Under the pieces are notes generated by a model. That model saw only the letters and a list, made by a program, of their open reading frames with translations. It was not told where the DNA came from and did no database searches. Positions 15,181-58,038 of a stretch of 64,000 nucleotides of DNA are shown here, in pieces; position 1 is the first letter of the stretch; every line of letters begins with the position of its first letter. The position numbers and the translations under genes were made by a program. The stretch covers positions 1,280,001 through 1,344,000 of the forward strand of contig CBDDCK010000005.1 of NCBI GenBank assembly GCA_965225855.1. The letters are read 5' to 3'. This DNA is from Spirochaetia bacterium. Its GTDB lineage: Bacteria > Spirochaetota > Spirochaetia > SP-2023.

Positions 15181-15360
15181 CTCGATTGCTAGCGAGGGTA
15201 ATCTGCTGATATTTCTTTTAACCCCAAGCACCACCCCACCCCCCAAACCAACAAACCCAAAGCAACCACCCCAAAGCAACCACCCCAAAGCAACAAGCCG
15301 AAATAGCCATACAAACGCAATTGGGCAATTGGTTTGCCGATGAGAATCTACAAGTCATCG

Positions 15361-15597
15361 CCTGTCTTGCTACAATATAGCTTTCCGCATTGGTATAAAG
15401 TATTGTTCCGCCTTGGATCAAGGTCTTGTTCCGCATTGGTGCAATATAGCTTTCCGCATTGGTATAAAGTATTGTTCCGCATTGGAGTAATGCCTTACTC
15501 CGCATTGGTGCAATATAACTTTCCCACTTCGATCAAGGCCTTGATCCGCATTGGAGTAAGGTATTGATCGAAGGCGGAGAGATGTATCATAGCAAGG
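15361..15597. repeat. 23-bp phased array, same family as 12505-12859, mostly inverted
   Basis: 8 units mostly ending TCCGCATTGG (15371-15554), then the orientation flips; palindromic linkers such as ATCAAGGCCTTGAT. Confidence 0.85.
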
Positions 15598-15614
15598 CAC
15601 TAAAAACCATAAAA

Positions 15615-15755
15615 ATAAGCAGGCCATAGACTTGCTAAAACCCAACAACATCGTAGAAAGCCAAAACTGGGACGACCTCAAATAGGGCCAGTATGCCGAT
15701 GCTTTGACCTTAGCCCACAGCGTCAATGCTGGCATTTTAGACGACTTGCACAATA
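15615..15755 (+). pseudogene. fragment of Mu gpF-like head morphogenesis gene
   Basis: KQAIDLLK...SQNWDDLK*GQYADALTLAHSVNAGILDDL resembles the gpF N-terminus (W.D....HA.AFTVA). Confidence 0.6.
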
Positions 15756-15876
15756 TCTGGCTATATATTGCGGGCCGATGACCCCAACTGCGATATATTG
15801 ATACCGCCCAATGGTTGGCATGGTTGGGTTGGCACGGTTGGCATGGTTGGCGTTGTGCTTGCTATCGCATAGCCTT

Positions 15877-16065
15877 AAGCCTTTTGATTGGCATGGATTT
15901 TGAACCACCTTACAACACTAACACACAAAAAAAGTGCCCAAACATAAAAAAACTTACAAAAAGCTTGTATAGGCCTTGACGCAACACCCCCCCTAGCAAA
16001 ATGGGGATTTACAGACTAGCCCGTATGGGTTGGTTAATCTTTATCCATTGTTGGAGGTATTGCTT
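15877..16065 (+). promoter_or_regulatory. conserved lipoprotein leader/promoter (copy 1)
   Basis: Shared with 23326-23550, 42173-42375 and 57358-57572; TTGACG-caaca-C7-tagCAAAAT; RBS GGAGGT. Confidence 0.7.
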
Positions 16066-18813
16066 ATGTATAAGCTCAAACTACTTTTATTGCCAGTAGC
16101 CTGGCTACTGGCCTTTATGGCCTTGGCCTGCGCCCCACCCGATGACGATGATCGATCTTCTGGGCCGTCTAAGCCGACTATCAATAACGCCATCTACGAC
16201 TTTGCTACGGCGCTGTTAACCGTACAAGGTACTGACTTAAGTCCTACAGAAGCCCAAATCCAAACCATCGTAGTAGATGGCGTAGCCTTAAGTTCCTATA
16301 CTGCAGATGCCAAACCCACTGGGCCAGATAATAGCAATCTGGCAAAAGGTAAGTACCGTATGAAAAGCGATGGCACAGCGATTTGGCTTAGACTTACCGA
16401 TCCACATAAAGCTGCTCTTCAGACCAAGGTGGGTATGAATACCAATGGTCTAAAAAAAGGGTTGCTTACTAGCTCTGGTGCTTGGGCGGGTTTAAATACA
16501 GCCAAAGACTTAACCGTTAGGAATGTACCCGATAAGCAGTCTAAAGTATCCGATGACAATCAGCCATCTAAGCAAACTGAAGACGAACAAGCTGAACAAG
16601 TCGAACAAGCTGAAGAGCAGTCGCCTGAAGCTGCAATTACCCGTGCAAGCTACCATGTTGGCACGGCGCTGCTAACTGTACAAGGTTCTAACTTAAGTCC
16701 TACAACTGCGACCCAAGCCCAAATCCAAACCATCAAAGTATATGACCTAGTCTTAAATTCTTATACTGCAGATGGCACAGCCACTGGGGCAGATAGTAGC
16801 AGTCTTGCAAAAGGTAAGTACCGTATTAAAAGCGATGGCACAGCGCTTTGGCTTTACCTTACCGATCGACATAAAACTACTCTGAATGGCAAGACAGGTA
16901 TGGATACCAATGGTCTAAAAGATGGGTTGCTTACTAGCACTGGTAGTTGGGCGGGTTTAAATACAGCCAAAGACTTAACCGTTAGTGGAAACCCCGAAAT
17001 TACCGGTGCAAGCTACCATGTTGGCACGGCTATCTTAACTGTACAAGGTTCTAACTTAAGTCCTACAGAAGCGCAAATCCAAACTATCGTGGTAGATGGC
17101 GTAGCTTTAGATTCCTATACTGCAGATGCCACAGCCACTGGGGCAGATAGTAGCAGTCTTGCAAAAGGTAAGTACCGTATTAAAAGCGATGGCACAGCCA
17201 TTTGGCTTTACCTTACCGATCGACATAAAACTACTCTGAATGGCAAGACAGGTATGGATACCAATGGTAGAAAAGTCGGGTTGCTTAGCGTTGGCACTGG
17301 TAGTTGGGCGGGTTTAAATACAGCCAAAGACTTAACCGTTAGTGGACACCCCGAAATTACCGGTGCAAGCTACCATGTTGGCACGGCTATCTTAACTGTA
17401 CAAGGTTCTAACTTAAGTCCTACAGAAGCGCAAATCCAAACCATCGTGGTAGATGGCGTAGCTTTAGATTCCTATACTGCAGATACCACAGCCACTGGGG
17501 CAGATAGTAGCAGTCTTGCAAAAGGTAAGTACCGTATTAAAAGCGATGGCACAAAGATTTGGCTTTACCTTACCGATCGACATAAAACTACTCTGAATGG
17601 CAAGACAGGTATGGATAGCAATGGTCTAAAAGATGGGTTGCTTACTAGCACTGGTACTTGGGCGGGTTTAAATACAGCCAAAGGCTTGGCCGTTAGTGGT
17701 AACCCCGCAATTACCGGTGCAAGCTACAATGTTGACACGGCGCTGTTAACTTTACAAGGTTCTAACTTAAGTCCTACCAGTGCGACCCAAGCCCAAATCC
17801 AAACCATCGTGGTAGCTGGCCTAGCCTTAGATTCCTATACTGCAGATTATGCCAAACCCACTGGTGAAAATATTCATTATTTATTAGAAAAAGGTAAGTA
17901 CCGCCTGCATAGCGCTGGCACAGCGCTTTGGCTGAAACTTACCGATCGACATAAAGCTACTCTGAATGGCAAGGACGGTATGGATAGCAATGGTCTAAAA
18001 GATGGGTTGCTTACTAGCACTGGCACTTGGGCGGGTTTAGATACAGCCAAAGCCTTGGCCGTTAGTGGTAACCCTGAAACTGCAATTACCCGTGCAAGCT
18101 ACAATGTTGGCACGGCGCTGTTAACTTTACAAGGTACTCTCTTAGCTAGTGCGACCCAACTGCAAATCCAAACTATCACGGTAGCTGGGGTAGCTTTAGA
18201 TTCCTATACTGCAGATGGTACAGCCACTGGGGCAGATAGTAGCAGTCTTGCAAAAGGTAAGTACCGCCTGCATAGCGCTGGCACAGCGCTTTGGCTTTAC
18301 CTTACCGATGACGATAAAGATGCTCTGAATGGCAAGACAGGTATGGATAGCAATGGTCTAAAAGATGGGTTGCTTAGCGTTGGCACTGGTACTTGGGCGG
18401 GTTTAAATACAGCCAAAGACTTGGCCGTTAGTGGTAACCCCGCCGCAATAGGCGATAGAAGTGAATACACACCTGCCTTGGGTTATTTAGAATTACAAGG
18501 TTCTAACTTATATGGTACTACCCAAGCCCAAATCCAAACCATCACGGTAGCTGGCGTACCCTTAGATTCCTATACTGCAGATGGCACAGCCACTGGTGAA
18601 AATGGTTATAATTTAATCAGTGGTAAGTACCGCATTAAAAACGATGGCACAAAGATTTGGATTCAACTTACCGGTGCCGATACAAATGCTATTAACGCCA
18701 AGCCTGATATGAATACGCCTGGTAAACAAGACGATAAGCTTAGCGTTGGCACTGGTGCTTGGGCGGGTTTAGATACACCGAAAGACTTGACCATCGATGA
18801 TTTTAGCCCATAA
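16066..18813 (+). CDS. repeat surface lipoprotein, paralog 1 (7 type-A ~118-aa repeats)
   Basis: Signal MYKLKLLLLPVAWLLAFMALA-C; tandem repeats; acidic linker. Confidence 0.85.
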   Translation: MYKLKLLLLPVAWLLAFMALACAPPDDDDRSSGPSKPTINNAIYDFATALLTVQGTDLSPTEAQIQTIVVDGVALSSYTADAKPTGPDNSNLAKGKYRMKSDGTAIWLRLTDPHKAALQTKVGMNTNGLKKGLLTSSGAWAGLNTAKDLTVRNVPDKQSKVSDDNQPSKQTEDEQAEQVEQAEEQSPEAAITRASYHVGTALLTVQGSNLSPTTATQAQIQTIKVYDLVLNSYTADGTATGADSSSLAKGKYRIKSDGTALWLYLTDRHKTTLNGKTGMDTNGLKDGLLTSTGSWAGLNTAKDLTVSGNPEITGASYHVGTAILTVQGSNLSPTEAQIQTIVVDGVALDSYTADATATGADSSSLAKGKYRIKSDGTAIWLYLTDRHKTTLNGKTGMDTNGRKVGLLSVGTGSWAGLNTAKDLTVSGHPEITGASYHVGTAILTVQGSNLSPTEAQIQTIVVDGVALDSYTADTTATGADSSSLAKGKYRIKSDGTKIWLYLTDRHKTTLNGKTGMDSNGLKDGLLTSTGTWAGLNTAKGLAVSGNPAITGASYNVDTALLTLQGSNLSPTSATQAQIQTIVVAGLALDSYTADYAKPTGENIHYLLEKGKYRLHSAGTALWLKLTDRHKATLNGKDGMDSNGLKDGLLTSTGTWAGLDTAKALAVSGNPETAITRASYNVGTALLTLQGTLLASATQLQIQTITVAGVALDSYTADGTATGADSSSLAKGKYRLHSAGTALWLYLTDDDKDALNGKTGMDSNGLKDGLLSVGTGTWAGLNTAKDLAVSGNPAAIGDRSEYTPALGYLELQGSNLYGTTQAQIQTITVAGVPLDSYTADGTATGENGYNLISGKYRIKNDGTKIWIQLTGADTNAINAKPDMNTPGKQDDKLSVGTGAWAGLDTPKDLTIDDFSP

Positions 18814-18825
18814 GTACATGCGGTA

Positions 18826-18960
18826 AGCAATGCTTGGTTGTTGCAGCCTTGGTAAGTTTTTTAGCAAGGTTGCTTTTACCAATTGTATCCTTGGTATGGA
18901 GAAAATACCAAGGCTATAAAAAATTTATTAAGGCTGTAAACTTTTTTTAGTAATAGCTTT
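18826..18960. repeat. palindromic CCAAGGCT/AGCCTTGG satellite downstream of lipoprotein gene
   Basis: Related to 21405-21490, 39683-39965 and 55335-55445. Confidence 0.7.
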
Positions 18961-19020
18961 GCACAAAAGCTTTGAACAAACCCCTTACAATAATTATTAC
19001 CAGAACGTTGCCATAACAAT

Positions 19021-19110
19021 TAAGAGAGTCTCTTAATGCCCAACAAGAGAGCCTCTTAATGCCTAATAAGAGATTCTCTTAATAAGAGACCTTCTTAATA
19101 ACTAACAAGA
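19021..19110. repeat. 23-bp period palindromic repeat (AAGAGAGTCTCTT family)
   Basis: TAAGAGAGTCTCTTAATGCCCAA CAAGAGAGCCTCTTAATGCCTAA TAAGAGATTCTCTTA... Confidence 0.75.
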
Positions 19111-19328
19111 ATTTTTTGTAACAAGATAAACTTTGGCCAAGTCTTGCTTGCCTTTTGGGTGGGGCAAAAACTTGGCTTTATTTTAAATTACCATTAATGA
19201 ACTAATCCAATGGACAATTTAAGATGAGGTAAAAGAGATTCTAAGACAGTTGAGCCTATCTCAAGCCGAGACTCAAAAAAGGTTATGATAAGAGCTTTTG
19301 CTATTAAAAATGGCATTAGCAGTAATCT

Positions 19329-20591: not shown

Positions 20592-21266
20592 ATATCATCT
20601 TCTATTTTGCAATTACTGTTGCGTGCGATTACTATCCTAGGAGTTGTATTTTTACCACAAAATTATCATTATTTCTAACTTTTTAATTCGCAATATTGAT
20701 AGAATCTAAACGAATACGAATATTTTGTAAATCAAAATTGATTTCGACACCAATATTCGGATGAAAAGTTAATATATTCAAAATAAAGTTTGCCTCTTCC
20801 CCCAAGGGCAAAGTAAATGGCGTATACTTTACTATATCTGGATGAGTATTAAATACATCAAGACACCGCCAACCTTTAAGTAACAAAAGAAGCCTATATG
20901 GCACCATAAATTGATGCAGGACCTGATAACTCGATTTTTTTCTACTTTCCAGAATGGGTATTTTGCCCAATAGCTACTTGAAGTACCACTTGACACAATT
21001 TGCAATTGTTGTTCTCTTTGCCACCAAATGTTGTGCCGGTACAACATTTCAAAAGGGCAACCAGTTCCCCTTTTGAATCAACCAATTCATAACGAGTATC
21101 TATATTCCACTGCGCTGGCAGCAAGTCCTCTAGTATTTTTACTTCTGCTCTTGTATTTTGGTATGTTGTTCTTTCGGCTATTGTGGTATGTATAGCCGAT
21201 TCATTTGGCCAAAGCCTTTTGCCACAACTGTAACAATAAAACGACTTGCGTGCAAATTTACTTACT

Positions 21267-21504: not shown

Positions 21505-23325
21505 TTAATAATTTACAACTTGAATAGCATTGGTTGGGTATGCTAAACCACCCATTACAAATCCTGCTGCTACTTCAAGGTTGTATGCACCATTATTATC
21601 ACGAAGACCAACCTTAACCAGTATCTTCTCGGCTTCCGCTCTTACACTACCGCTTAAAGTAATAAATAATCTGCGTCTATTTACCCCCATAGAACCTGTG
21701 GCTGTGTTTTCACCTGCAGTTGCGTGCTGGGGTAATGTGTATCTCTTATTACCATCACCGGATACAAGCGTCAATTTGCTAAAGTCCCACTCTGCAACTA
21801 CTCTCGGTAAATTGGCACCCTCAATCGATAATATGCCTTCAATAATAGAGTAGAGTACGGTGTTGATTTTGACTACATACCCACTAACGGTAATAGGGTT
21901 ATTGCTTGTGTCTTCAGCGCTACCACCTGCAAATCCTGCTGCTGCTTCCAGGTTGTATGCACCATTATCATCACTTTCACCATTCTTAACCAGTATAGCA
22001 TCGGCGTTCCTTTTTTCACCACCCTTTAAAGTAATCGTTAAGCTTGTTGCACTTGCTGCAGAACCTTTGGCAAAGTGTGTAGTTGAAGCTGGGCTGTGTG
22101 CTCTTAATGGGACACTCTTACGACCATTACCTGCAACAAACCTCAATTTGGTGAAGTCCCAGCCCCACACTGTTGACGGTAAATTGACACCTGTAATCAC
22201 TAACACACTTGTAGCAACATTGTAGGTTGCACGGGTAATTGCGGGGTTACCACTAACGGCCAAGGCTTTGGCTGTATCTAAACCCGCCCAAGCACCAGTG
22301 CCAACGCTAAGTAACCCATCTTTTAGACCATTGCTATCCATACCGTCCTTGCCATTCAGAGTAGCTTTATCGTCATCGGTAAGTTTCAGCCAAAGCGCTG
22401 TGCCATCTCTTTTGAGGCGGTACTTACCTTTTACAAGACCGCGATTATCTGGCCCAGTGTCATCGTCATCTGTAGTATAGGAACTTAAGGCTAAGCCATC
22501 TACCACGATGGTTTGGATTTGGGCTTGGGTCGCACTACCTAAGTCAGTACCTTGTACGGTTAACAGCGCCGTGCCAACATGGTAGCTTGCACCGGTAATT
22601 GCGGCTTCAGGCGAATCCTCTTCGACTTGTTCGACTTGTTCGGCTTTAGGTTGCTTAGGCGACTCTTCTTCAGCTTGTTCGACTTGTTCGACTTGTTCGG
22701 CTTTAGGTTGCTTAGGCAACTGCTTATCTTCGGTTTGCTTAAGCGACTGCTCTTCGGTTTCGGTCTTAGACTGCTGATCTTCGACTTCTTCGGTTTGTTC
22801 AGCTTCTTCAGTTTGCTTAGATGGCTGATTGTCATCGGATACTTTAGACTGCTTATTTTCGGGTACATTACTAACTTCCAAGTCTTTGGCTGTATTTAAA
22901 CCCGCCCAAGCACCAGAGCTAGTAAGCAACCCTTTTTTTAGACCATTGCTACCCACCTTGCCATTCAGAGCAGCTTTATGTGGATCGGTAAGTCTAAGCC
23001 AAAGCGCTGTGCCATCATTTGCAATACGGTACTTACCTTTTTCAAGACCACGACTATCTGGCCCAGTGGCTGGGTCATCTGCAGTATAGGAACTGAAGGC
23101 TACACCATTTGTTCGGCTTCCTACCACGATGGTTTGGATTTGGGCTTCTGTAGGACTTAAGTTAGTGCCTTGTATGGTTAACAGAGCCTTGCCAACATCG
23201 TAGATGGCGTTATTGATAGTCGGCCCAGAAGACGGCGCATCATCGTCATCGGGTGGGGCGCAGGCCAAGGCCATAAAGGCCAGTAGCCAGGCTACAGGCA
23301 ATAAAAGTAGTTTGAGCTTATACAT
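21505..23325 (-). CDS. repeat surface lipoprotein, paralog 2 (A-linker-A-B-B)
   Basis: Same signal and lipobox; type-B repeats WDF.KL...YNLEAAAGF. Confidence 0.85.
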   Translation of the reverse strand: MYKLKLLLLPVAWLLAFMALACAPPDDDDAPSSGPTINNAIYDVGKALLTIQGTNLSPTEAQIQTIVVGSRTNGVAFSSYTADDPATGPDSRGLEKGKYRIANDGTALWLRLTDPHKAALNGKVGSNGLKKGLLTSSGAWAGLNTAKDLEVSNVPENKQSKVSDDNQPSKQTEEAEQTEEVEDQQSKTETEEQSLKQTEDKQLPKQPKAEQVEQVEQAEEESPKQPKAEQVEQVEEDSPEAAITGASYHVGTALLTVQGTDLGSATQAQIQTIVVDGLALSSYTTDDDDTGPDNRGLVKGKYRLKRDGTALWLKLTDDDKATLNGKDGMDSNGLKDGLLSVGTGAWAGLDTAKALAVSGNPAITRATYNVATSVLVITGVNLPSTVWGWDFTKLRFVAGNGRKSVPLRAHSPASTTHFAKGSAASATSLTITLKGGEKRNADAILVKNGESDDNGAYNLEAAAGFAGGSAEDTSNNPITVSGYVVKINTVLYSIIEGILSIEGANLPRVVAEWDFSKLTLVSGDGNKRYTLPQHATAGENTATGSMGVNRRRLFITLSGSVRAEAEKILVKVGLRDNNGAYNLEVAAGFVMGGLAYPTNAIQVVNY

Positions 23326-23704
23326 AAGCAATACCTCCAAAAATGGATAAAGATTAACCAACCCATACGGGCTAGTGTGTAAATCCCTATTTTGTTAGGG
23401 GGGGTGTTGCGTCAAGGCCCATACAAGCTTTTTGTAAGCTTTTTATAAGTTTTTTTGTGCTTTTTTTATGTGTTGGCACTTTTTTTGTGTCTTAGTGTTG
23501 TGTGTTAGTGTTGTAAGGTGGTTCAAAATCCATGCCAATCAAAAGGCTTGAGATACCTTGGGTAAAAATTTGTAATACGCTAGACGCAGTCCGGGTGTTG
23601 CGTTTCGTATGATCGTACGAAACATCATGGCACAAAGTATAAGAATTTGGTATAAGAATTTGAGTTTTTTGTATCGCAGTACAGCCCAGTTTTTAGCAAA
23701 CATA

Positions 23705-24148
23705 TTATGATTTTTTTAGAGACTGCCACAGTCTCATTGGAAAATCCCTAGGTTGCCAATCAAAAAAGCTAGTAAGGTTTTCAGTCAAAACCTTACTAGC
23801 TTTTTTCAGAAATCTTACTAGCTTTTTGAGACCGTGGCCCGTTACCATGATATTTTGAAAGCATATTGTTGCCGACAATGACCCATATGCCGAAAAACAA
23901 AAATTTTTTACTTTTTCCATTTGTGGATTCAGCCGAAAGGCACAAAAAAGCGGTGCATGGTTTGGTTATCCTAGCACCGCTTTGGCTTTTTGAAGTTTTG
24001 AGCGTTTTTGCTCTGGTTTGGTGTTAAAAATGGATTCTGGCTTTTTCTCGTGCAATGAAAATTTTTTTACTTTTAATACTGTAGGAAGGAAAAATAAGAA
24101 AATTATTAATAGAAAAGAAAAACGAAGACTCGGCTGCAATTTAATCAT
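23705..24148 (-). pseudogene. degraded hypothetical gene with signal-like N-terminus
   Basis: Two same-frame ORFs separated by a stop; inverted repeat at 23762-23806. Confidence 0.3.
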
Positions 24149-24186
24149 TTTGGTAAGCAGTATGCCATAATCATACTGCCAAATTT

Positions 24187-39600: not shown

Positions 39601-39682
39601 CCTGATTCCGCTCCGCCGGAAGGGAGGGCTTTTGTAACGGCGCACGCAAAATAAAACGACTTGCGTGCAAATTTACTTGCCT

Positions 39683-39965: not shown

Positions 39966-39967
39966 AC

Positions 39968-42172: not shown

Positions 42173-42421
42173 AAGCAATACCTCCAAGAATGGATAAAGA
42201 TTAGCCAACCCATACGGGCTAGTGCATAGAGCCCTATTGTGTTAGGGGGGGAATTGAGTCAAGGCCTATATAAGCTTTTTGTAAGTTTTTTTACAAGTTT
42301 TTTTGTGTTAGGGTACTTTTTTTGTATTAGTGTTGTTTTTTAGTGTTGGTTGGGAGTTCAAAATCCATGCCAATCCATTTGCATTCCATATTATCGTAAT
42401 CTATAAACCATCAAAACAACC

Positions 42422-42480
42422 AGTCCATAGTTATAGACGAGGCAAGTCGATAACTATGGACCGACCTAGTCCATAATTGT
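42422..42480. repeat. 23-bp period palindromic repeat (GTCCATAGTTATAGAC family)
   Basis: AGTCCATAGTTATAGACGAGGCA AGTCGATAACTATGGACCGACCT AGTCCATAATTGT. Confidence 0.65.
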
Positions 42481-42547
42481 TACTTTTCAAAAGTACATAA
42501 TTAGGGCATGGTTTGGTTTTTATTGTGAAGGCTTGGGGGGTGGGGTG

Positions 42548-42718
42548 GATTATCAAGCCCCGCATTTAATCATAAAGCCCAAATTGCAGAAGGATTTACA
42601 AAAGCTAGCGGGCGTAGTAACCACCCTAACCAGTGGAGGCCTGAAGATACCCCAAAATTGGATATACGAAGAGTTTGGCATACCCGGAGCCCAAACAAGG
42701 CGAAGAAGTTTAAAGTAG
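42548..42718 (+). pseudogene. fragment of Mu gp29-like portal (DUF935) C-terminus
   Basis: DLQKLAGVVTTL..GGLKIPQNWIYEEFGIP. Confidence 0.6.
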
Positions 42719-43629: not shown

Positions 43630-43850
43630 TTATTGCTTGCGAAAATCCCACGGGGCTATAGGCTTGCTTTGTTGCCAAAGGCCAGTTTTTTGTTCTCTTG
43701 CTTTAGTTTCAGCTTTTTGGTAGAGCTCTTGTAAGTCCGTTGATTTTGGGGCGTATTGAGTATAATACCATGCAAGCCCTTCTTTAACTAATTCATAATT
43801 TAGGCTGCTACCTTTACCTACTTTGCTTGGTGGGTAAAAGTGAATGGCAG
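43630..43850 (-). pseudogene. thermonuclease (SNase-like) C-terminal fragment
   Basis: SLNYELVKEGLAWYY.QYAP...YQKAETKAREQKTGLWQQSKPIAPWDFRKQ*; not in the ORF track. Confidence 0.8.
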
Positions 43851-43872
43851 GAAAGCTATAAAATATCTTATT

Positions 43873-46473: not shown

Positions 46474-48504
46474 TTAGCTCTTCATAAAGCGTCTGTATTG
46501 ATTTACCAGCGGTTTAAGCAATGGATAAATTTTAAGCTTTTTACTAAGCACTTTGGCTATTACCCAAACTTTGCGCTTTAAAACTTTAGCGACTATCCCA
46601 ACCTTGCGCTTGTTGGATAATTGGCCAAAACGATACCAACGATCGTTTTTCATGGTACTTATGGTGAACCAATCTTGTAACAAACCAGACAGAATAGATA
46701 CATCATAGGTATACAATTCTGTGCATAATAAATTCAATCTGTCCAGCAATTCTTGCTCTTTTTGTTCCTTGGGAATGCTAGCTAAGCCGTATGATAAAAC
46801 ATGATGATAAAACCAGTCAAATATTTCCTGATATGCAGAAACTAATATTCTGTGAGAACCAAGTTCTTTATATAAAATACCAGATGCTTGAGCAAAGTCT
46901 TTAACACTTTTTTCTGAATATTGATTAGTTAAACTACCACTACGCATATAATAGTAATACATACTTTGCGGAATATATAACAGCTTTTCCAGCTTGTAGA
47001 GCAATTGCGGTGTTACGGCCATATCTTCAGCACTAATACCCTCCGGAAAATATATATTATTTTCTATGAATAATCTGCGCTGCCATAGTTTTGCCCAGGC
47101 ACAGTTATAGATATTGACCCTGTGTTCACCACCTGTACAGTAAACCTCAAATGGATTTTCAATTATCGTATCACTATTTACAGAATTTATATGATGAGAA
47201 TCATTAAAGCTGCCAGCCTCATGTACTATTGTATGCTGACATGTAAAAAGCCTTATATCTGGATATTGCAATACTTTATTGAGAAATATTTCTACCATAT
47301 TCGGAGCGATATAATCATCACTATCTACAAATAACAACCATTCTGCTGTAGCTGCCTTAATGCCGGTATTGCGGGCACCGCCTAAATGTTTGTTTTGCTC
47401 ATGGCGGATAGCAACAATCCGTTGATCTTTGGCCGCATATTGTTCAATCAACTCCCAACTATTATCCGGAGAGGCATCATCAACAATGATAATTTCTATA
47501 TTTTCTTCGGTCTGGTTATAAACTGATTCTAAACAACGAATTAAATATTCTTCCGTATTATAAACGGGAATGATTACGGAAACCTTGGGGTCTACTTTGG
47601 GCTCTGGTTTTCGTTCATACCGGGAATAGACTACTTGCCAATCCAACGGTAAAAATTGATGAGGTTTAGTATTTGTGGGGAATAACCAAATCTGCGGCAT
47701 AATAACTACAGAATCTTTCTGTTGGCCTAGTAAAGCTCCCAGCAAACTATAGCTGCTATTGGCAATGATAAAATGTTTGCAATGCGCTATTAAACTAAAA
47801 TCTTCTAGCGTGTTTCCTGCAGGATAATCATAGGCCAATTCTAAATTTTTCAATAATGGCTCAATGGCTTGCTTACAATAAGCTAAATCATCGCTAAAAA
47901 CTAGGATATAAGGCTGTCTCTCTTGGGAAGTTTTACCAATTTGGCAACAAATACTTTCTAACGCACTGCGATAATATCCCACCGAAATACAGGGGTGACG
48001 AGACATATTCTCTTTAATAAGATAATCTCCCCTGCGCACATGCAGGGCAACCAGTTGATATTTTTGTTGTAATTGCTGGTACTTTGCCGCTATAGGCAGT
48101 AATTGAATATTCAAATATGGTTTAGCTAGTTCAAAATAACGGTAATGCTGAAAATATCCTTCTAATACTATTTCTGTCGGTAAATTGAGAAAATCATCAT
48201 CAAACTGAAACTGGTTCGGTTCTTGGTATGGTAGTAAACCTTTAGGAGTTTTTTGACAAATTCTCAAATTGGCAAACAATTTATCTAGTTCAAATGGACG
48301 ATTTCCTGTTTGGTGCAACCATATCTCTGGCTCTTCTGCTATACCGGTATGTCGGCTATATAACGCCAGAGCCGCTATATATTGCCAAATTTGATTGCCC
48401 AGTCCTCCTAGAAGTTTTACAACAATTCTTTTGGACAATATCTCTATATCCTTTCTCTCTTCAGTAGTCTTTTGAGAAGGCGTAAAAAAGGATAAATTCT
48501 CCAT
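46474..48504 (-). CDS. alpha-1,2-fucosyltransferase (GT11) fused to GT2 glycosyltransferase
   Basis: GGLGNQ, GYFQ, HVRRGDY, FSDD, IANSSYS; then VSVIIPVYN...DDASPD...DSDD. Confidence 0.85.
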   Translation of the reverse strand: MENLSFFTPSQKTTEERKDIEILSKRIVVKLLGGLGNQIWQYIAALALYSRHTGIAEEPEIWLHQTGNRPFELDKLFANLRICQKTPKGLLPYQEPNQFQFDDDFLNLPTEIVLEGYFQHYRYFELAKPYLNIQLLPIAAKYQQLQQKYQLVALHVRRGDYLIKENMSRHPCISVGYYRSALESICCQIGKTSQERQPYILVFSDDLAYCKQAIEPLLKNLELAYDYPAGNTLEDFSLIAHCKHFIIANSSYSLLGALLGQQKDSVVIMPQIWLFPTNTKPHQFLPLDWQVVYSRYERKPEPKVDPKVSVIIPVYNTEEYLIRCLESVYNQTEENIEIIIVDDASPDNSWELIEQYAAKDQRIVAIRHEQNKHLGGARNTGIKAATAEWLLFVDSDDYIAPNMVEIFLNKVLQYPDIRLFTCQHTIVHEAGSFNDSHHINSVNSDTIIENPFEVYCTGGEHRVNIYNCAWAKLWQRRLFIENNIYFPEGISAEDMAVTPQLLYKLEKLLYIPQSMYYYYMRSGSLTNQYSEKSVKDFAQASGILYKELGSHRILVSAYQEIFDWFYHHVLSYGLASIPKEQKEQELLDRLNLLCTELYTYDVSILSGLLQDWFTISTMKNDRWYRFGQLSNKRKVGIVAKVLKRKVWVIAKVLSKKLKIYPLLKPLVNQYRRFMKS

Positions 48505-50240
48505 TGCTTTATAATTTCTTTTAATAAGCCAATAGAGCTAACACTCTTAATAATTTCGCGGCGAATATCCTGATAATCATAATCTCCTAGAAGTTTTACT
48601 TGTTCATCAAAACGAAGAGAATGCTCTAATAAATGATTTTTATCCTGCCACCAATATTTCACATCCGTTCCATGTTTTTGATTATAATAATCCACATCTC
48701 TTTTTAGGTAAAACTCTACCGGTGAACCGGAGAATTTCTCATCTCCCGTTTTCTTATGAACCGTCCGTGTACCACCTTTTCCATAGTGAAACACAAAACT
48801 CTTACGGCTAATATAGCCAATAGCCCCCTTAGCCACAGCATCATTTACATATTCCTGACTAAAGAACAATGAAAAATACTGGTCGTCTAAAAAGCCAAAA
48901 CGCTCTACATAATTTCTAGTAAAAACAGTGGTTTCAAAAGAAACCGAAGGAACAAAACGAATTGTACGGTAACCCTGACAATCATTAGCAATTTCCGTGA
49001 CTTCTTCTATGGTAATTCCTGTATGAATCCCATTTAACATTCCCGTTTGCTGATTGATATTCGATTGCCAATGTTCTCTCATTTTAAGCGGAATTAAAAG
49101 ATTTTTATGAGTTACAAAACTTGTAGAAGGCATAATAAAATCGGCATCACCATATGTTGCAAACTCTGATAAAACTCTGTTAAACCAATAATAAGGCACA
49201 ATATAATCATCTGCAAATACAGAAATATAATCCGCCTTGGTCTGATTATACAAATGCTTTAACAAAATATTATAACCCTTAGCATTCATACTATCTTTAT
49301 AATCTAATAATATAGAAGAAACAAAGGCATATTCTTTTTCTAAAGACTCAATAAAATTTTTCGTTTTAGCTCCTATACCTTTAGAACCATTTATAGGGTT
49401 TTCAGAAATATTAATTCCAATAACCAGCTCCACTTGTGTAACACAGGATTCAGCGGCTAAACATAAACTTTTTAAACAGTTTTGGATTTGTTCTAAATGT
49501 ATTGGGTCATCTTCAGGATTAAAAACCAAAATTCCAAGCGCAAAAGTCTTCCCTACAGTAGAAGCCCCAATGGTAGAGTCGGAATGTTTACAATGGTATA
49601 CATATTCATTTGGAATGTAGCGAGGATTGCAATCAGGGCCTTTTTGCTTCGTTAAAGAAATAGCATAAACCTCTTTTTGATAATTTTCTTTGTGAACAGG
49701 AATTTGCCATTTTTTACCATACCAAATTTCTAAATACTGTGTATAATTTGAAGGTATATTAAAACTAACTCCCCGGAAAGGCTTTCTACTTATCTCGGCA
49801 ATGTCTTTAGGAAAAAAAAGGCCAAGTATTGCATGCTGTTGTGGATGCGTTGGCGAAATTCCTTTCGGAAGCTCTCTGGGACTTATATATACAAGTGAAT
49901 CATCTATTTTTTGTAAGAATTGAATATCAATACCTACAAAAAATTTTTCAGCTCGAATCAAGACTTTACGATGGTTTGAATTATAAAAATAATACCAGAT
50001 GTGAAAGCCATTTTGTTCTAATATATTGTAAACAAATTCAGGATCATCTGTAACTACATCTAAGTCTAAATCCGTATCATCTTGAACGGGTTTCTCATCG
50101 CGAATAATTCCTAAAAGAGAACTAGATGCAAGCCAATAGCGAATATTGTTTGCAGTAAATACACGATCTACTGCCTCAATCGCTTTATGTATATTTTTCT
50201 GTAGAAATTTTGCACGGCTGCTTTCTAATACATTAATCAT
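48444..50240 (-). CDS. LicD-like nucleotidyltransferase fused to glycosyltransferase-like domain
   Basis: YWL..SLLGIIRD...DTDLDL, YL..WYG..W.IP; C-terminal ADDY and FVFHYG. Confidence 0.6.
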   Translation of the reverse strand: MINVLESSRAKFLQKNIHKAIEAVDRVFTANNIRYWLASSSLLGIIRDEKPVQDDTDLDLDVVTDDPEFVYNILEQNGFHIWYYFYNSNHRKVLIRAEKFFVGIDIQFLQKIDDSLVYISPRELPKGISPTHPQQHAILGLFFPKDIAEISRKPFRGVSFNIPSNYTQYLEIWYGKKWQIPVHKENYQKEVYAISLTKQKGPDCNPRYIPNEYVYHCKHSDSTIGASTVGKTFALGILVFNPEDDPIHLEQIQNCLKSLCLAAESCVTQVELVIGINISENPINGSKGIGAKTKNFIESLEKEYAFVSSILLDYKDSMNAKGYNILLKHLYNQTKADYISVFADDYIVPYYWFNRVLSEFATYGDADFIMPSTSFVTHKNLLIPLKMREHWQSNINQQTGMLNGIHTGITIEEVTEIANDCQGYRTIRFVPSVSFETTVFTRNYVERFGFLDDQYFSLFFSQEYVNDAVAKGAIGYISRKSFVFHYGKGGTRTVHKKTGDEKFSGSPVEFYLKRDVDYYNQKHGTDVKYWWQDKNHLLEHSLRFDEQVKLLGDYDYQDIRREIIKSVSSIGLLKEIIKQWRIYPFLRLLKRLLKRERI

Positions 50241-50356
50241 AAGTTATACTCTGTTTTAAATTCAGAACGCCCATCATATAAAAAATCTTATTTTGGAATA
50301 GGTACGAAAAAAATTATTAGAGTAAAATCATACAAAAAATATTGAAGGAGCAAAAA

Positions 50357-50624
50357 ATGGCATCAATATCTATGTTCTGGGGCATTATTATCAGAATGTA
50401 TTTTAACGAGCATAATCCACTACATCTTCACGCTGCATATGGAGAATTTGAAGGGACATTTAATATTACAACAAGCGAATTTAGAATTTATCAAAGGTAA
50501 TTTACCTAAAAGGCAAATTAAGCAAATAGAAGTCTGGGCTGATTTGTACCAAAAAGAACTTATGGCAAATTGGACTTTAGCCAAGTCTGGAGAAAGTTTG
50601 TTTAAGATTGAAGGATTAAAATAA
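50357..50624 (+). pseudogene. DUF4160 protein, frameshifted
   Basis: ISMFWGIIIRMYFNEHNPLHLHA.YG, frameshift near 50475, then GNLPKRQ...WADLYQKELMANW. Confidence 0.75.
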
Positions 50625-50905
50625 TGAATTGTGCCCCATATGAAAAAATTATAGAGGTTATACCTTCGCCGGAATACAAATTAAAACTGCGATTTGCAAC
50701 TTAAGAGGTGAAGATTTATGATGTAGTGCCCCTGCTAACAAAAGTGGTTTTTCGGGCTTTGCAAGATCAATCGGTTTTTCATAAAGTGCGTGTATGTGGC
50801 TATTCCGTAATTTGGCCGGGCGAAATAGATATAGCCCCTGAAAGCTTATATCAAGAAAGTATCTCGATTGAGGATTGGGAGAAGAGCATTGTTCAAGATG
50901 GCTAA
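50624..50905 (+). pseudogene. DUF2442 protein with premature TAA (50702)
   Basis: EVIP.PEYKLKLRF..*EVKIYD...VIWPGEIDIAPESLY. Confidence 0.75.
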
Positions 50906-51138
50906 AAAAACAACTATTGATTATAAATGCCGTAAAAATTGTAGGGTAAGGGCAGCCTAATTAACGAACAATTGCTGACAATCGTTATTGCAAGGTTCAT
51001 GCAATAAGTGTTGTATTCGATTATAACAAGCGTTGCATTTAGATTGCAACAAGTATTAGAAACATCTTATAATAACTGTTGCACTTAAATTGGCCTCTTG
51101 CATAATTTGCCGACCGTAAAAATCATAAGAAGGTTATA

Positions 51139-52218
51139 ATGCAAGATAAAATTAGTGTAATTGTTCCCGTTTATAATACAGAAAAATACCTAGAAGAATG
51201 TTTAGAAAGTATTGTCAATCAATCATTTGCTAACCTTGAGATTATTATTGTCAATGATGCTTCGCCCGATGGTAGCCATAAAATTATCCAAAAGTTTGCA
51301 CAACATGACGCCCGTATTAAAGTAATTGACCATAAACAAAATTTAGGCCAGAGTGCTGCCAGAAATTCAGCATTAGATATGGCTTGTGGCGATTATATAT
51401 TTTTTATCGACAGTGATGACACTATAGAGCAGTCAACACTAGAAATTATGCTAGCAACAGCTATCAAAAATAATGCCGATATTGTCGGTTGCCCTTTGCG
51501 TAGAACGGACGAGCAAAACCAAAACACAATACAAATTGATTATGGTAGTACCAAGCCATATTTAATATTCCTTGGTGCAGAAGAGATATACAGAGCATAT
51601 TTTTTTCGAGGTAGTATATCGGTTACTGTAGCCGCAAAACTATATAAAAAACAACTTTGGTCCAATATCAGAATGCCCGTTGGTAGAATCCAAGAAGATA
51701 ATACTGTTTTTTATGATATAACATTAAATTGTAAAAAGTTTATACAAATCAATAAGCCACATTATAGCCACCGGTTGCATACAGAATCATCAACTGGAAA
51801 ACAAATTGATGAAAAATTTATTTTAGATTTCTTAGTATTTCTGAATAAACTAAAATACTTTTTTACTAGCAGCGATTGGTCACCAGATATTATTGCGGGT
51901 GCAAGGCAAACCATTCGCAATAGTTTAAAACATCAATGTATCTTACCCAATAATATTGCAATATTTAATCCAGATGCTCTAAAAATATTATTGCAAAATG
52001 CCCAACAATACGATTTAGAAACAGAAGTAATAGAAGAAATTGCCAATTGTTTTGATATTGTAGTAACCAAAATGCAACGCCAACAACAAGCTGATTGGTG
52101 GTACCAATTTGGTCAACGCTCAAACAAACAAAGAGTTTTGGCTATTGCTAAAATCATTAGCCAAAAGCTGGGGTTCTATGAATTACTGCAACTTTTGGCT
52201 GCTAAGTTAAAACGCTAA
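51139..52218 (+). CDS. GT2 glycosyltransferase
   Basis: ISVIVPVYN, NDASPD, FIDSDD, QED. Confidence 0.9.
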   Translation: MQDKISVIVPVYNTEKYLEECLESIVNQSFANLEIIIVNDASPDGSHKIIQKFAQHDARIKVIDHKQNLGQSAARNSALDMACGDYIFFIDSDDTIEQSTLEIMLATAIKNNADIVGCPLRRTDEQNQNTIQIDYGSTKPYLIFLGAEEIYRAYFFRGSISVTVAAKLYKKQLWSNIRMPVGRIQEDNTVFYDITLNCKKFIQINKPHYSHRLHTESSTGKQIDEKFILDFLVFLNKLKYFFTSSDWSPDIIAGARQTIRNSLKHQCILPNNIAIFNPDALKILLQNAQQYDLETEVIEEIANCFDIVVTKMQRQQQADWWYQFGQRSNKQRVLAIAKIISQKLGFYELLQLLAAKLKR

Positions 52219-52248
52219 ATTAAAATATTCGTTAGAAAAACAACCCCA

Positions 52249-53370
52249 ATGGAAAAACCAATACCTAAACCCAAAATCAGTATTATTGTGCCAGTTTACA
52301 ATACCCAACAATATTTGCGCCAGTGTTTGCAAAGTATTGTAAACCAAACTCTACAGGAAATTGAAATTATCGTAGTCAACGATGCCTCGCCCGATAATAG
52401 CCAAGCCATCATTGATGAATTTGCTGCCAAAGATGCTAGAATTATTTCAATTATTCATAGCGAAAATAAAAGGCAGGGTGCCGCTCGAAATACCGGCATG
52501 CAACATGCCAAAGCCGATGTTATCGGCTTTATTGACAGTGATGACTACATTGAAAACTCTATGTATGAAGATATGTACAACATGCTCATTGCCCATAATC
52601 TGGATATGGTTCAATGTTCAATCGCCAGAATTGGCCCCAATGGTTCTAATAGTATCTATTTCCAAGCCACAAGAAAAAACGGCATCATTTTGAGAGAATC
52701 TCTTATAGATGCCTTGTTTGAAATTAGCGAAATTGATTTCCCAATAAGGTGGAGCGCATGTAACAAAATCTTTGTGAAAGATATTATCATCCATAACAAA
52801 ATAGAATTTCCTGTAGGTATTATTGCAGAAGATATTCCTTTTACAATTAAGTATTTATCCAGCATCAATTCTGTGGGAAATCTGCCTGGTGATTATTATA
52901 AATACCGGTTAAATCTATCATCAACAATGAATAAAGATACAAACATTGCATACATAGATAGCTTTAATTTTATATATATGAATTTCCAAGATTTTTTTAT
53001 AGATAAAAAAAAATTCAAAAGTGATTATTTATTCGCTTTTTTTCATGAATATTGCAATGCACTATATCATATTTGGAATCGGTTTCCTGATGATAAAAAA
53101 ATAGAGCACAGTCAATTATTTATTGATTCCGTATACCAAAAAATTCCACAATTACTAGCCCATAATCAATTAGACCCTAATGCCATGAAGTTTATTTTAC
53201 AACCAATCGAATTTTTAAATAATCGCTGGTGCCGTTTTGGCTTGTTATCGCGCAAACGTAAAATTTGGGCGATTGCCAAATTCTTTAGCAAAAAACTGGG
53301 CTTATATAAATTGCTAAGGTCCATAGCAACGCCCATAGCCACTAAGTTTAAACACTATCTGGAAAAATAA
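52249..53370 (+). CDS. GT2 glycosyltransferase
   Basis: ISIIVPVYN, FIDSDD, AED. Confidence 0.9.
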   Translation: MEKPIPKPKISIIVPVYNTQQYLRQCLQSIVNQTLQEIEIIVVNDASPDNSQAIIDEFAAKDARIISIIHSENKRQGAARNTGMQHAKADVIGFIDSDDYIENSMYEDMYNMLIAHNLDMVQCSIARIGPNGSNSIYFQATRKNGIILRESLIDALFEISEIDFPIRWSACNKIFVKDIIIHNKIEFPVGIIAEDIPFTIKYLSSINSVGNLPGDYYKYRLNLSSTMNKDTNIAYIDSFNFIYMNFQDFFIDKKKFKSDYLFAFFHEYCNALYHIWNRFPDDKKIEHSQLFIDSVYQKIPQLLAHNQLDPNAMKFILQPIEFLNNRWCRFGLLSRKRKIWAIAKFFSKKLGLYKLLRSIATPIATKFKHYLEK

Positions 53371-54888: not shown

Positions 54889-54914
54889 TCATAAATTCTA
54901 CAGCAGAGTTGTAA

Positions 54915-55259
54915 ATGAAAGCTCTCTCATTTTTATGCAATAATTGTGGCAAAGAATCTTTACCGAATATCGATTCTTGTCCACACTGTGGTTCGGCTTT
55001 TAGCAATGTTGTGTATTGTTTGCAGTGTGAGTATGAAGCAGATGAAAAATATTTTCATGATGGTTGCCCTAAATGTGGCTATATGTCTAAAAATAAAAAC
55101 TCTAAAAACCGAAGCCAAGCCAATCAAGCCAATATTAAAGCCAAAGCAAAAAAGTTGCATAATAATAATTTTAGCTTTAAAGCTATAAGTATAGCCATTT
55201 TGGTATTGCTACTGATATTCTTTTTAATATGGTTTTACGACATTATCATATCTGGCTAA
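54915..55259 (+). CDS. double zinc-ribbon membrane protein
   Basis: Four CxxC pairs; C-terminal TM. Confidence 0.7.
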   Translation: MKALSFLCNNCGKESLPNIDSCPHCGSAFSNVVYCLQCEYEADEKYFHDGCPKCGYMSKNKNSKNRSQANQANIKAKAKKLHNNNFSFKAISIAILVLLLIFFLIWFYDIIISG

Positions 55260-55512
55260 AAGAACACGCTAGTCCATGTTTTCAAAAACTTAAAGCTCTT
55301 CGATATGTTCCCATTTTTCTTATTTCCCAAGTAAGTCAAAGATAAAAAACTTACCAAGGCTATAATTGGCCAATGCAAGCGTTGCAACAACAAGATACAG
55401 CCTAATAACCCAACAATAAGCCAACCAAGCATTGCTTGCAGCATTTACTTGGTTGGCCGCCCACTAGCTTTCATTTAGCTGCTCTAAGAGCTATTGGGCA
55501 AGCGCAGTCAAA

Positions 55513-57357
55513 CTAAGATAATATAATATTTTTTGTGTCTGCTGGACTACCCATTACAAATCCTGCTGCTGCTTCAAGGTTGTGAAGACCAACCTTAACC
55601 AGTATCTTATCGGCTTCCGCTTTTACACTACCGCTTAAAGTAATCGTTAAGCTTGTTGTACTTGCCGAACCTGTGGCTGTGTTTTCACCTATTGCGTGCC
55701 GGGGTAATGTGTATTTCTTCTTACCATCACTGGATACAAGCGTCAATTTGCTAAAGTCCCAGTCTGCAACTGCTGTCGGTAACTTTCTACCATTAATTAC
55801 TAACACGCCTGTACGAGGATTGTAGGTTGAGTGTTTGATCTGGCTTACATACCCACTAACGGTAATAGGATTGGTTGTGTCTTCTGCCCTACCACCTGCA
55901 AATCCTGCTGCTGCTTCCAGATTGTATGCACCAGCATCATCACTATCACCATTAGTAACCAGTATATCATAGGCTTTCGTGTATTCAGTACCCTTTAAAG
56001 TAATCGTTAAGCTTGTTGCACTTGCTGCAGAACCTTTGGCTCTGTTTCTATCGGTTGGGTTGTGCGGTGATAATCGGGCACTCTTACGACCATTACCTGC
56101 GACAAGCCTCAATTTGCTAAAGTCCCAGCCCCGCACTGATGACGGTAAATTGACACCTGTAATCACTAATCTACCTGTAATAGCATCGTAGGTTGCACTG
56201 GTAATTGTGGGTGCGGGGTTTCCACTAACGGCCAAGCCTTTGGCTGTATCTAAACCCGCCCAAGTACCAGTGCTAGTAAGCAACCCATCTTTTAGACCAT
56301 TGCTATCCATACCTGTTTTGCCATTCAGAGTAGCTTTATCGGTATCGGTAAGGTAAAGCCAAAGCGCTGTGCCAGCGCTATGCAGGCGGTACTTACCTTT
56401 TGCAAGACCGCGACTATCTGACCCAGTGGCTGTGGCATCTGCAGTATAGTAATTTAAGGCTAAGCCATCTACTACGATGGTTTGGATTTGCGCTTGGGTC
56501 GCACTAGCTAAGTGAGTACCTTGTACAGTTAACAGCGCCGTGCCAACATTGTAGGTTGCACGGGTAATTGCGGCTTTAGGCGACTCTTCTTCAGCTTGTT
56601 CGACTTGTTCGTCTTTAGGTTGCTTAGGCGACTCTTCTTCAGCTTGTTCGACTTGTTCGTCTTCAGTTTGCTTAGGCGACTCTTCTTCAGCTTGTTCGAC
56701 TTGTTTGTCTTTAGGTTGCTTAGGCGACTCTTCTTCAGCTTGTTCGACTTGTTCGTCTTCAGTTTGCTTAGGCGACTCTTCTTCAGCTTGTTCGACTTGT
56801 TTGTCTTTAGGTTGCTTAGGCGACTCTTCTTCAGCTTGTTCGACTTGTTCGTCTTCAGTTTGCTTAGGCGACTCTTCTTCGGTTTCGGTCTGCTTATCGG
56901 GTATATTGCTAACGGTTAAGTCTTTGGCTGTATCTAAACCCGCCCAAGCACCAGAGCTAGTAAGCAACCCTTTTTTTAGACCATTGCTACCCACCTTGGC
57001 CTCAAGAGCAGCTTTATGTTGCTCGGTAAGTTTCAGCCAAAGCTTTGTGCCATCAGTTGCAATACGGTACTTACCTTTTGCAAGATCGCGACTATCTGGC
57101 CCAGTGGCTGGGTCATCTGCAGTATAGGAACTGAAGGCTACGCCATCTACTACGATGGTTTGGATTTGGGCTTGGGTCGCACTGGTAGGACTTAAGTCAG
57201 TACCTTGTACGGTTAACAGCGCCGTAGCAAAGTCGTAGCTTGCACTGGTGATTGCAGGCGCAGAAGACGGCGCATCGTCATCGGGTGGTGCGCAGGCAAA
57301 GGCCATAAAGGTCAGTAGCCAGGCTACTGGCAATAAAAATAGTTTGTGCTTATACAT
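55513..57357 (-). CDS. repeat surface lipoprotein, paralog 4 (A-linker-A-B-B')
   Basis: MAFAC lipobox; 16-aa linker repeat x6. Confidence 0.85.
   Translation of the reverse strand: MYKHKLFLLPVAWLLTFMAFACAPPDDDAPSSAPAITSASYDFATALLTVQGTDLSPTSATQAQIQTIVVDGVAFSSYTADDPATGPDSRDLAKGKYRIATDGTKLWLKLTEQHKAALEAKVGSNGLKKGLLTSSGAWAGLDTAKDLTVSNIPDKQTETEEESPKQTEDEQVEQAEEESPKQPKDKQVEQAEEESPKQTEDEQVEQAEEESPKQPKDKQVEQAEEESPKQTEDEQVEQAEEESPKQPKDEQVEQAEEESPKAAITRATYNVGTALLTVQGTHLASATQAQIQTIVVDGLALNYYTADATATGSDSRGLAKGKYRLHSAGTALWLYLTDTDKATLNGKTGMDSNGLKDGLLTSTGTWAGLDTAKGLAVSGNPAPTITSATYDAITGRLVITGVNLPSSVRGWDFSKLRLVAGNGRKSARLSPHNPTDRNRAKGSAASATSLTITLKGTEYTKAYDILVTNGDSDDAGAYNLEAAAGFAGGRAEDTTNPITVSGYVSQIKHSTYNPRTGVLVINGRKLPTAVADWDFSKLTLVSSDGKKKYTLPRHAIGENTATGSASTTSLTITLSGSVKAEADKILVKVGLHNLEAAAGFVMGSPADTKNIILS
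56575..56880 (-). repeat. 48-bp coding tandem repeat x6
   Basis: EEESPKQTEDEQVEQA alternating with EEESPKQPKDKQVEQA. Confidence 0.9.
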
Positions 57358-58038
57358 AAGCAATACCTCCAACAAATGGATAAAGATTAGCCAACCCATA
57401 CGGGCTAGTGTGTAAATCCCCATTTTGCTAGGGGGGGTGTTGCGTCAAGGCCTATACAAGCTTTTTATAAGTTTTTTTATGTTTAGTGTTGTTTTGTGTT
57501 GGCACTTTTTTTGTGTCTTAGTGTTGTTTTGTGTTGTAAGGTGGTTCAAAATCCATGCCAATCAAAAGGCTTGAGGGTGTTGGCCTTTGTTTGTATTTGG
57601 GCCTTTGGCTGTTTCAGCCTTTGGTTGTTTCCATGCAATGATCAATAGTTTGGCTATATTGGCTTCTCGGTATTTAGTTGGGGCTCTTCTGGGTATATAC
57701 CGAAAGCGCTTTGCGCAAACAACTTTGGCCATACAGTGTTTTTTGGCTTGTTGCTTTGGTTTTGGTGGCCTTTGGGGTGTTAGTTGGGGGTGGGCATTAC
57801 CATTTTTGGCGTTATCGAAGACCCCACCAGTTTTATTGAGGCCTTACTTCCAGACACAGATATATCAACTTTTTCCACACCTGAGAATTATATTAACTAT
57901 AAACGAAACAGAAAAAATAACCTGGACTTTTCAGATTGAACAATATATTTTAGTAAATTTTGGTATAGTTTAAAATATATTCTCCATAATAAGCCCAGGC
58001 GCATTAAGGATTCTTTACATAAAAGAACCTTCAATTTA

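Follow-up and report, generated by a model that had tools for sequence, protein, structure and literature searches.

Mobile and phage DNA multiplies host-interaction genes in several bacteria, as with the erp and mlp genes of the Borrelia cp32 prophages, the PMU/SVM islands of phytoplasmas, and the RAGE elements of Orientia, and segmental gene conversion generates patchwork variants of vlsE in Borrelia. The usual explanations for large variable surface families are tandem duplication, plasmids, or silent-cassette arrays; their first spread is rarely visible. Here, we describe a lipoprotein gene family in a Spirochaetia bacterium in which the vehicle is still legible from the phage ends and target duplications that surround a host-type gene now filling 8% of the genome. 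Four copies lie in a stretch of 64,000 nt (the window; source genome G000, C5:1280001-1344000). The genome comprises five contigs (2.71 Mb, 40% GC) and contains three genes for FlaA, a protein typical of spirochaetes, whereas none was found in 14 control genomes. We judge it rather probable that the genes form a 110-copy family of mini-Mu elements, likely spread by a resident B3-like prophage whose transposase acted in trans, with a predicted switchable surface repertoire as the outcome.

Unlike cp32, PMU, and RAGE, which are large elements with many genes of their own, the cassette described here measures 2.4-3.7 kb and carries a single cargo gene. It resembles engineered mini-Mu and mini-D3112 and the B3/Tn552 phages (PMC8705779) in its TG...CA ends with repeated binding-site motifs and, as in B3, a 6-bp duplication. 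As in engineered mini-Mu, the cassettes have no transposase of their own, and a ~36-kb prophage, the likely helper, encodes an rve transposase, an AAA ATPase, GemA, and Mor. In contrast to the engineered elements, they are natural, have been amplified about 110-fold, and have as cargo a bacterial gene for a surface lipoprotein together with its promoter; most of them have lost their ends yet kept the gene.

Two reports describe a homopolymer between the -35 and -10 elements, with an optimum of 17 bp, in Treponema pallidum tp0126 and Neisseria porA (PMC7864442), and switching of the Mycoplasma hyorhinis vlp lipoprotein family by a promoter-spacer homopolymer (PMC2268961). The genes studied here are likewise surface-protein genes with a homopolymer in the -35/-10 spacer but differ in the number of predicted switches (108 rather than one or a few), in the shortness of the run (C5-C9), and in dispersal by a phage transposase instead of clustering. 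In Treponema phagedenis, the putative promoters of the lipoprotein genes prrA, vpsA, and vpsB contain a simple repeat of variable length; these three genes are clustered, their repeats are (TA)n, and a mini-Mu architecture is not mentioned in the accessible part of that source (PMC13474147). Identity with PrrA/Vps, a first guess, was dropped because the architecture differs. Like tprK (PMC10063172), the family shows variants of a spirochaete surface protein that are pieced together from short common tracts; compared with tprK and vlsE, it has no promoterless donor cassettes and no single expression site, and whole genes are dispersed as transposons. An analogy to vls/tpr variation without homology had been proposed; no sequence relation was found and the mosaicism is alike, but the architecture is not vls/tprK-like. 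No natural mini-Mu family with a surface-gene cargo was found in the literature, in a search that reached few subscription journals. A combination of spread resembling engineered mini-Mu, switching that would resemble porA, tp0126, and vlp, and mosaicism resembling tprK and vlsE was not found described.

Dispersed cassettes and the resident prophage

The original prediction rested on four genes and suggested a genome-wide search with their leader, which showed that they are a sample of 110 dispersed paralogs. A tblastn search with family proteins gave 118 loci across the genome. The leader anchored 112 open reading frames (ORFs), namely 110 family members and two unrelated ORFs with the same leader; four leader matches without a usable ATG were left out of this count. 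The family covers 8.1% of the genome, with about one copy per 24 kb on both strands. The usual protein plan is signal peptide, A domain, acidic low-complexity linker, further A domains, and a variable number of B domains. A basic N-region, a hydrophobic core, and the ALA/AFA-C ending, as read from the sequence, identify the products as bacterial lipoproteins with a predicted surface location. The best match of a paralog within the family has a median identity of 76%, and only one pair exceeds 90%.

The proposal that the cassettes were spread by Mu-type transposition is borne out by phage termini that keep one orientation and by target duplications of 6 bp. In the orientation of the gene, a phage left end was found 290-980 bp upstream of 29 copies and a right end downstream of 26, mostly at 80-350 bp. 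The left terminus opens with TG-N5 and continues with two sites of the GGAC(A/G)(T/C)GATAACT type at a spacing of 23 bp; the right terminus mirrors this arrangement and ends in CTGCATCA. Genome-wide, 30 left and 30 right termini were located; 55 of the 60 stand beside a family gene in element orientation, and three of the other five are prophage ends. The end motif has 118 matches in G000 versus 2-5 in each of three genomes of the same genus (G001-G003; median protein identity of G003 to G000, 65%). Sixteen cassettes, 2.4-3.7 kb long, retain both ends, and the duplication test covered these only, as the window copies lack the ends it needs. Exact 6-bp target duplications surround five of them (V030, V058, V081, V097, and V099), where 0.023 were expected by chance and 0 of 20,000 shuffles gave five. 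At least one terminus is present at 39 of the 110 copies under strict patterns, a lower bound considering that the right end of the second window copy is a variant.

Phage scraps proved to be enriched near the paralogs: of 99 prophage-matching loci, which are not independent of one another, 83 lie no more than 1 kb from a paralog, and this zone accounts for 8.7% of the other DNA. The scraps mostly keep to a fixed side of the paralogs (gp46-like at 17/19 loci, gpF-like at 19/19, portal at 4/5, and a 23-bp satellite at 43/51). These three kinds of scrap and the satellite are passengers inside the mini-element, not, as originally pictured, debris in which the cassettes had landed. We regard a mini-Mu origin of the cassettes as highly probable.

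The prophage spans C5:1257689-1293766 (~36 kb), and its right part, with tail and baseplate genes, occupies window positions 1-13766 on the forward strand (right terminus 13748-13766), the transposase lying 5-7 kb left of the window. Pfam matches identify an rve transposase, an AAA ATPase, GemA, Mor, and a Mu-type portal; the prophage also encodes a central repressor, a Mu-type protease, gpF, terminase, and a contractile tail. From its rve transposase and the 6-bp duplication, it classifies as B3/Tn552-like rather than Mu proper; phage B3 generates 6-bp target duplications (PMC8705779). The transposase gene (C5:1273165-1274925), an open 586-aa frame with an rve domain and DDE-like motifs, has one copy in the assembly, inside the prophage, and none in the cassettes. 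The 12 outermost bases found on cassettes are missing from the left end of the prophage, several of whose virion genes are split or shortened. Partial prophage copies at the ends of contigs C3 and C4, together with long tail-region contigs 3-5 times deeper than unique contigs in the sequencing runs, make further prophage copies probable. A 680-bp intact phage left end at C5:2030137-2030826, near the contig end and facing away from V112, shows the complete left terminus absent from the main prophage. A related prophage in G002 has the identical end motif at both ends; with the patterns used, no expansion of ends was found in this genome or in G001 and G003. Beside that prophage end, a G/C-rich short repeat (G002 L035:17550-17680) recurs several times in another 60-kb G002 stretch and is possibly a REP-like family. 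A tmRNA at window positions 13979-14336 (Rfam RF00023, 91 bits), overlooked by ARAGORN, was rejected as the attachment site of the prophage, as it lies ~210 bp beyond the right end.

Several further features were observed around the ends. The 23-bp satellite, built of palindromic units, occurs at 51 loci genome-wide and at 12514-12853 and 15367-15573 of the window; it interrupts the prophage baseplate region, also forms stand-alone arrays (for example C5:1184627, 1187631, and 1049668), and has a period equal to the 23-bp spacing of the phage end motifs. The cassette of V088 (C5:1594979-1598895) is bounded by two right ends, one of them inverted with extra baseplate-region DNA. Cassette ends that have no terminus frequently break off in runs rich in C (5') or in G/T (3'), and of the 247 triple G/C-run motifs, 101 are no farther than 1.3 kb from a copy. 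Recombination started by G-quadruplexes, known from pilE, was considered and rejected, since there are only 13 canonical motifs genome-wide, four of them near copies.

Two longer copies, V044 and V052 (C5:353763 and 571748), have extra N-terminal repeats and a mixed A/B order and show neither a match to the promoter C-run discussed below nor the shared upstream flank. They are the closest relatives of P0093, a protein from another assembly (40% for V052 and 37% for V044), and likely represent the ancestral type of the family. With the queries used, the family was not found in 40 relatives, GTDB contigs, JGI metagenomes, or PDB sequences, nor in five further targets with V052 as the query. Five family proteins from other contigs are present in ENA; their best G000 matches reach no more than 76-86%, and the two that were tiled are both patchworks of G000 segments. 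V067, a 217-aa lipoprotein with 17-residue tandem repeats, has the family leader and a 16-bp TATAAT promoter; its 10-kb surroundings (C5:1103723-1113900) contain eight matches of the cassette 3' satellite, which suggests a tandem lipoprotein cluster related to the regulatory parts of the cassettes.

Promoter C-run, repeat domains, and mosaicism

A C-run in the promoter spacer, which is absent from the original prediction, was found at 108 copies within predicted promoters of the type TTGAC(G/T/C)-N5-C(n)-N3-CA(A/C/T)AAT, the -10 hexamer being a predicted assignment. The run is C7 in 85 copies and C6 in 20, with one copy each of C5, C8, and C9, and the -35/-10 spacers range from 13 to 17 bp (106/108 at 13-15 bp, the C8 and C9 copies at 16-17 bp). 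For the other promoter-like pairs in G000, the commonest spacings in 778 upstream regions are 16 bp (26 regions) and 17 bp (25 regions). A -10-like hexamer at 16-17 bp was seen in five of the 108: V058 (C9, an intact cassette), V084 (C8), V103, which has a 3-bp duplication, and, in weak form, V014 and V054. Of the 24 multi-member haplotypes with identical flanks, 13 include more than one run length, and C6 occurs on 19 haplotypes. Sequencing runs X1, X2, X4, and X5 were examined as Logan contigs; X4 and X5 belong to a second study, and X1 and X2 are probably the source sample and so not independent of the assembly. The C6 form is present in the X1/X2 contigs, where individual copies are indistinguishable, and is therefore not merely an assembly error. 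An indel row reading '+C at 15963' was rejected as a C-run variant, since the run of the first window copy lies at 15987-15993, and loss of mismatch repair was rejected because both mutS and mutL are present. We think that the C-run probably acts as an ON/OFF switch of the porA/tp0126/vlp type, its effect on expression being predicted. All four window copies are C7 and would be off. This makes for a sharp prediction across 108 promoters, namely that C7 is off and C8/C9 on.

The same promoters could instead belong to a co-expressed adhesin repertoire, with many or all copies active together at a low level and the 15-bp spacer tolerated or compensated by an activator. The dominance of C7 fits this possibility, no C-run indel appears among the rows listed for X4 and X5, and 15-bp spacers are not rare in G003, where 12 were counted against 28 at the 17-bp peak; the homology of the B domain to repeats of giant surface proteins (see below) also agrees with it. 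However, the 15-bp class in G000 is at the shuffle level (five versus ~7), the family promoters hold 87 of the 139 C/G runs of at least 7 in the genome, and run length varies on many independent haplotypes. We consider co-expression unlikely.

The repeat domains differ in how they vary. Pairwise pN/pS values, obtained on recombining genes, were 0.61 for the signal peptide, 0.86-0.87 for A, 1.2 for the first B, and 1.71 for the last B domain. Structure prediction of the B repeat, one of the checks originally suggested, gave an Ig-like sandwich with one helix (pLDDT 83); variable B residues alternate along the predicted strands and, in this model, would form one sheet face. The best structural match of the fold is weak (S-layer SbsC, Z 7.7, rmsd 2.8, 93 aligned), fold searches for B gave nothing at E<=0.001, and the A and B profiles match weakly (probability 29%). 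Through P0093, B is linked to the repeats of DUF4347/beta-strand-repeat giant proteins (33-41% identity, E down to 4e-86), which share the homologous B-type repeat and the predicted Ig-like sandwich; in contrast to these giants, the family places 4-8 repeats on a lipid anchor and has no DUF4347 or RTX domain. An adhesin-like role of the family would be in keeping with this relationship.

A selfish mini-Mu would have spread for its own sake, with a weak and cheap C7 promoter and with recombination that maintains open frames and mosaicism but serves no surface variation. High copy number and intergenic placement (a cassette boundary cuts a gene in only 3 of 140 flanks having a G003 match) suit such a tolerated parasite. 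A pure parasite, however, would be expected to retain its ends and lose its frame, whereas 104 of the 110 paralogs measure at least 500 aa and 109 retain the lipobox Cys although most ends are lost, and pN/pS exceeds 1 in the distal domains only. Selfish spread without a surface role therefore seems to us distinctly improbable.

Mosaicism was analyzed in the 83 copies that contain two or more A and two or more B domains. Distances between modules were hardly correlated (Spearman -0.04 to 0.21), and two modules had a common nearest neighbor in only 2-21 of the 83 copies. In the first A domain, linkage (r2) fell from 0.23 to 0.03 within 25-50 bp; decay within ~25 bp was significant for the first A, last A, and first B domains (permutation P<0.001). 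The window copies tile into 19-27 exact tracts of at least 30 bp from 13-21 different paralogs, one tract being 802 bp long. Mosaic exchange among paralogs is almost certain. The segmental gene conversion proposed at the outset holds as far as exchange is concerned, which is seen in linkage loss and module incongruence, but one-way conversion is indistinguishable from reciprocal exchange.

One-way conversion is what a vls/tprK-like system would use, with a single expression site (for example V058, V103, V044, or V052) fed by ~100 silent donors. Patchwork sequences would be expected from it, as would the small number of C-run promoters (5/108) with a -10-like hexamer at 16-17 bp. Each supposed donor, however, is a full gene that has a promoter, a ribosome-binding site (RBS), and a signal peptide of its own; mosaic structure is seen in the four C7 window copies too; and C9 and C8 occur on haplotypes on which C7 and C6 copies are also found, an indication of switching in place. 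We hold this arrangement to be very improbable. Contig breaks do lie at cassettes and prophage copies, but an assembly artefact behind the copies or their mosaicism can be given practically no weight in view of distinct unique flanks, 6-bp duplications, the median best-paralog identity of 76%, leader depth in the second-study runs (X4/X5) far above that of unique DNA (a summed depth, which is not a copy number), and family proteins in an ENA assembly with different contigs.

For a mini-Mu family with a switchable repertoire, the following course of events is proposed. The cassettes bear prophage termini, and some retain 6-bp target duplications. An adhesin-like lipoprotein gene of the V044/V052 type would have been captured between phage ends, with small scraps as passengers. 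Homologous exchange then may have shuffled tracts of 30-200 bp, altered A/B numbers, and eroded or swapped ends, while selection would favor change in the membrane-distal B domain; the pattern is observed and the mechanism is conjectural. A spacer C-run of C5-C7 (13-15 bp) would keep nearly all copies weak or silent, and a slip of +1 or +2 (16-17 bp) would switch a copy on, so that a cell displays one or a few variants. Surface variation would then be the function. Whether a domesticated phage built antigenic variation in this manner, its transposase copying cassettes, recombination shuffling them, and a one-base promoter slip selecting the variant, we see as evenly balanced, and we give the same even weight to antigenic variation that works with neither a donor array nor a fixed expression site, a kind of which no description was found.

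Several observations weigh against this proposal. Under strict patterns, 71 of the 110 copies lack both termini, although 68 of these 71 share element-internal flank sequence. Eleven of the 16 two-ended cassettes have no matching duplication; the unmatched ends show a central TA in 16 of 46 cases against a background of 8-9% (P about 1e-6), and this shared target bias makes it likely that the transposase generated them as well and that exchange or replicative rearrangement re-paired them later. Cross-cassette 6-mer matches are no more frequent than chance (three versus 1.27 expected, P=0.13), and flank swapping gave no excess pairing (two observed versus 2.0 expected). Empty sites could not be demonstrated with a distant, rearranged G003 and sequencing runs that consist of contigs without bridges, and a split-gene test against G003 found no reunited gene halves. 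Synteny with G003 breaks at 98 of 99 cassette intervals, but also at 105 of 114 long cassette-free intervals. The sole transposase gene of the assembly belongs to a prophage whose left end is shortened and whose virion genes are broken, which makes present-day mobility uncertain. Linkage decay was not significant in the last B domain (P=0.25), and the pN/pS values carry the limit given with them. No C8 or C9 variant appears among the indel rows listed, and slippage may be slow, considering the short C-runs and the presence of mutS and mutL. As side observations on genome order, 525 of 1099 neighboring ortholog pairs are broken between C5 and G003, consistent with heavy rearrangement, and the weak, patchy GC skew on C5 shows no clear switch between origin and terminus.

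If the mini-Mu family is what it appears to be, transposable phages can serve as gene-family amplifiers. The ends, the 6-bp duplication, and the cargo form a signature that can be searched in other genomes, and natural ends with their transposase are a candidate genetic tool for spirochaetes.

Copies and neighboring genes in the window

The four window paralogs, with ATGs at 16066 (+), 23325 (-), 42172 (-), and 57357 (-), have a common leader, an RBS, and a lipoprotein signal peptide ending in ALA/AFA-C, as had been recognized, and the reported repeat contents (7A; 2A+2B; 2A+3B; 2A+2B) are exact. Three short peptide blocks described as shared patchwise are indeed present but common genome-wide, occurring in 21, 13, and 11 of the 110 paralogs.

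Copy 1 (V072; 16066-18813, +) encodes 915 aa arranged as signal peptide, A, acidic linker, and six A domains. Its predicted sigma70 promoter (15976-16002, +) has TTGACG at -35, C7 at 15987-15993, and CAAAAT at -10, with a 15-bp spacer. The shared 5' flank (15222-15975, +) contains a gp46-like scrap, the 23-bp satellite, a gpF-like scrap, and an A-rich leader, and the shared 3' flank (18814-19163, +) consists of 3' satellite modules; the terminus is gone on both sides. The gp46 assignment agrees with 98% identity over 60 nt to a prophage stretch matching phrog_180. The gpF label has no relevant Pfam or PHROG match, but the sequence is a repeated module, as its 19 loci show.

Copy 2 (V073; 21505-23325, -) is an AABB protein of 606 aa, with a predicted promoter at 23389-23415 (-; C7 at 23398-23404, 15-bp spacer). 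The phage right end noted after it is real: positions 20912-21228 (-) match at 91% over 320 nt, include one variant binding site, and terminate in ...CTGCATCA at 20912. On the other side, 23920-24074 (-) is a subterminal part of the phage left end, 96% identical to the prophage at C5:1257792-1257947, with the terminal TG lost.

Copy 3 (V074; 39968-42172, -; AABBB, 734 aa) has a predicted promoter of the TTGACT/CACAAT type at 42236-42262 (-; C7 at 42245-42251, 15-bp spacer). Portal and SNase scraps had been noted next to it, and both have profile matches. The Mu-type portal scrap (42470-42715, +; Portal_Mu, E=1.2e-4) forms the outer edge of the 5' flank, which is shared to ~42609, but the SNase match (43633-43872, E=3.8e-11) is a unique neighbor outside the element. 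Likewise, the truncated DUF268 gene said to abut copy 3 is found (E=7e-8) and ends at the copy-3 boundary, adjoining the shared 3' flank (39632-39967, -) as a frame-broken remnant, but it is a unique neighbor and not part of the element; a search for the remainder of this gene did not find it.

Copy 4 (V075; 55513-57357, -; AABB, 614 aa) has a predicted promoter at 57422-57448 (-; C7 at 57431-57437, 15-bp spacer) and a shared 5' flank to ~57795. The original prediction placed the other three copies beside phage scraps; copy 4 likewise has element-internal flank modules. Positions 38119-39650 and 46474-53370 of the window are rich in glycosyltransferase genes (GT2, GT11, and LicD) and include the frame-broken DUF268-like gene; this region, which adjoins copies 3 and 4, is a possible surface-glycan locus.

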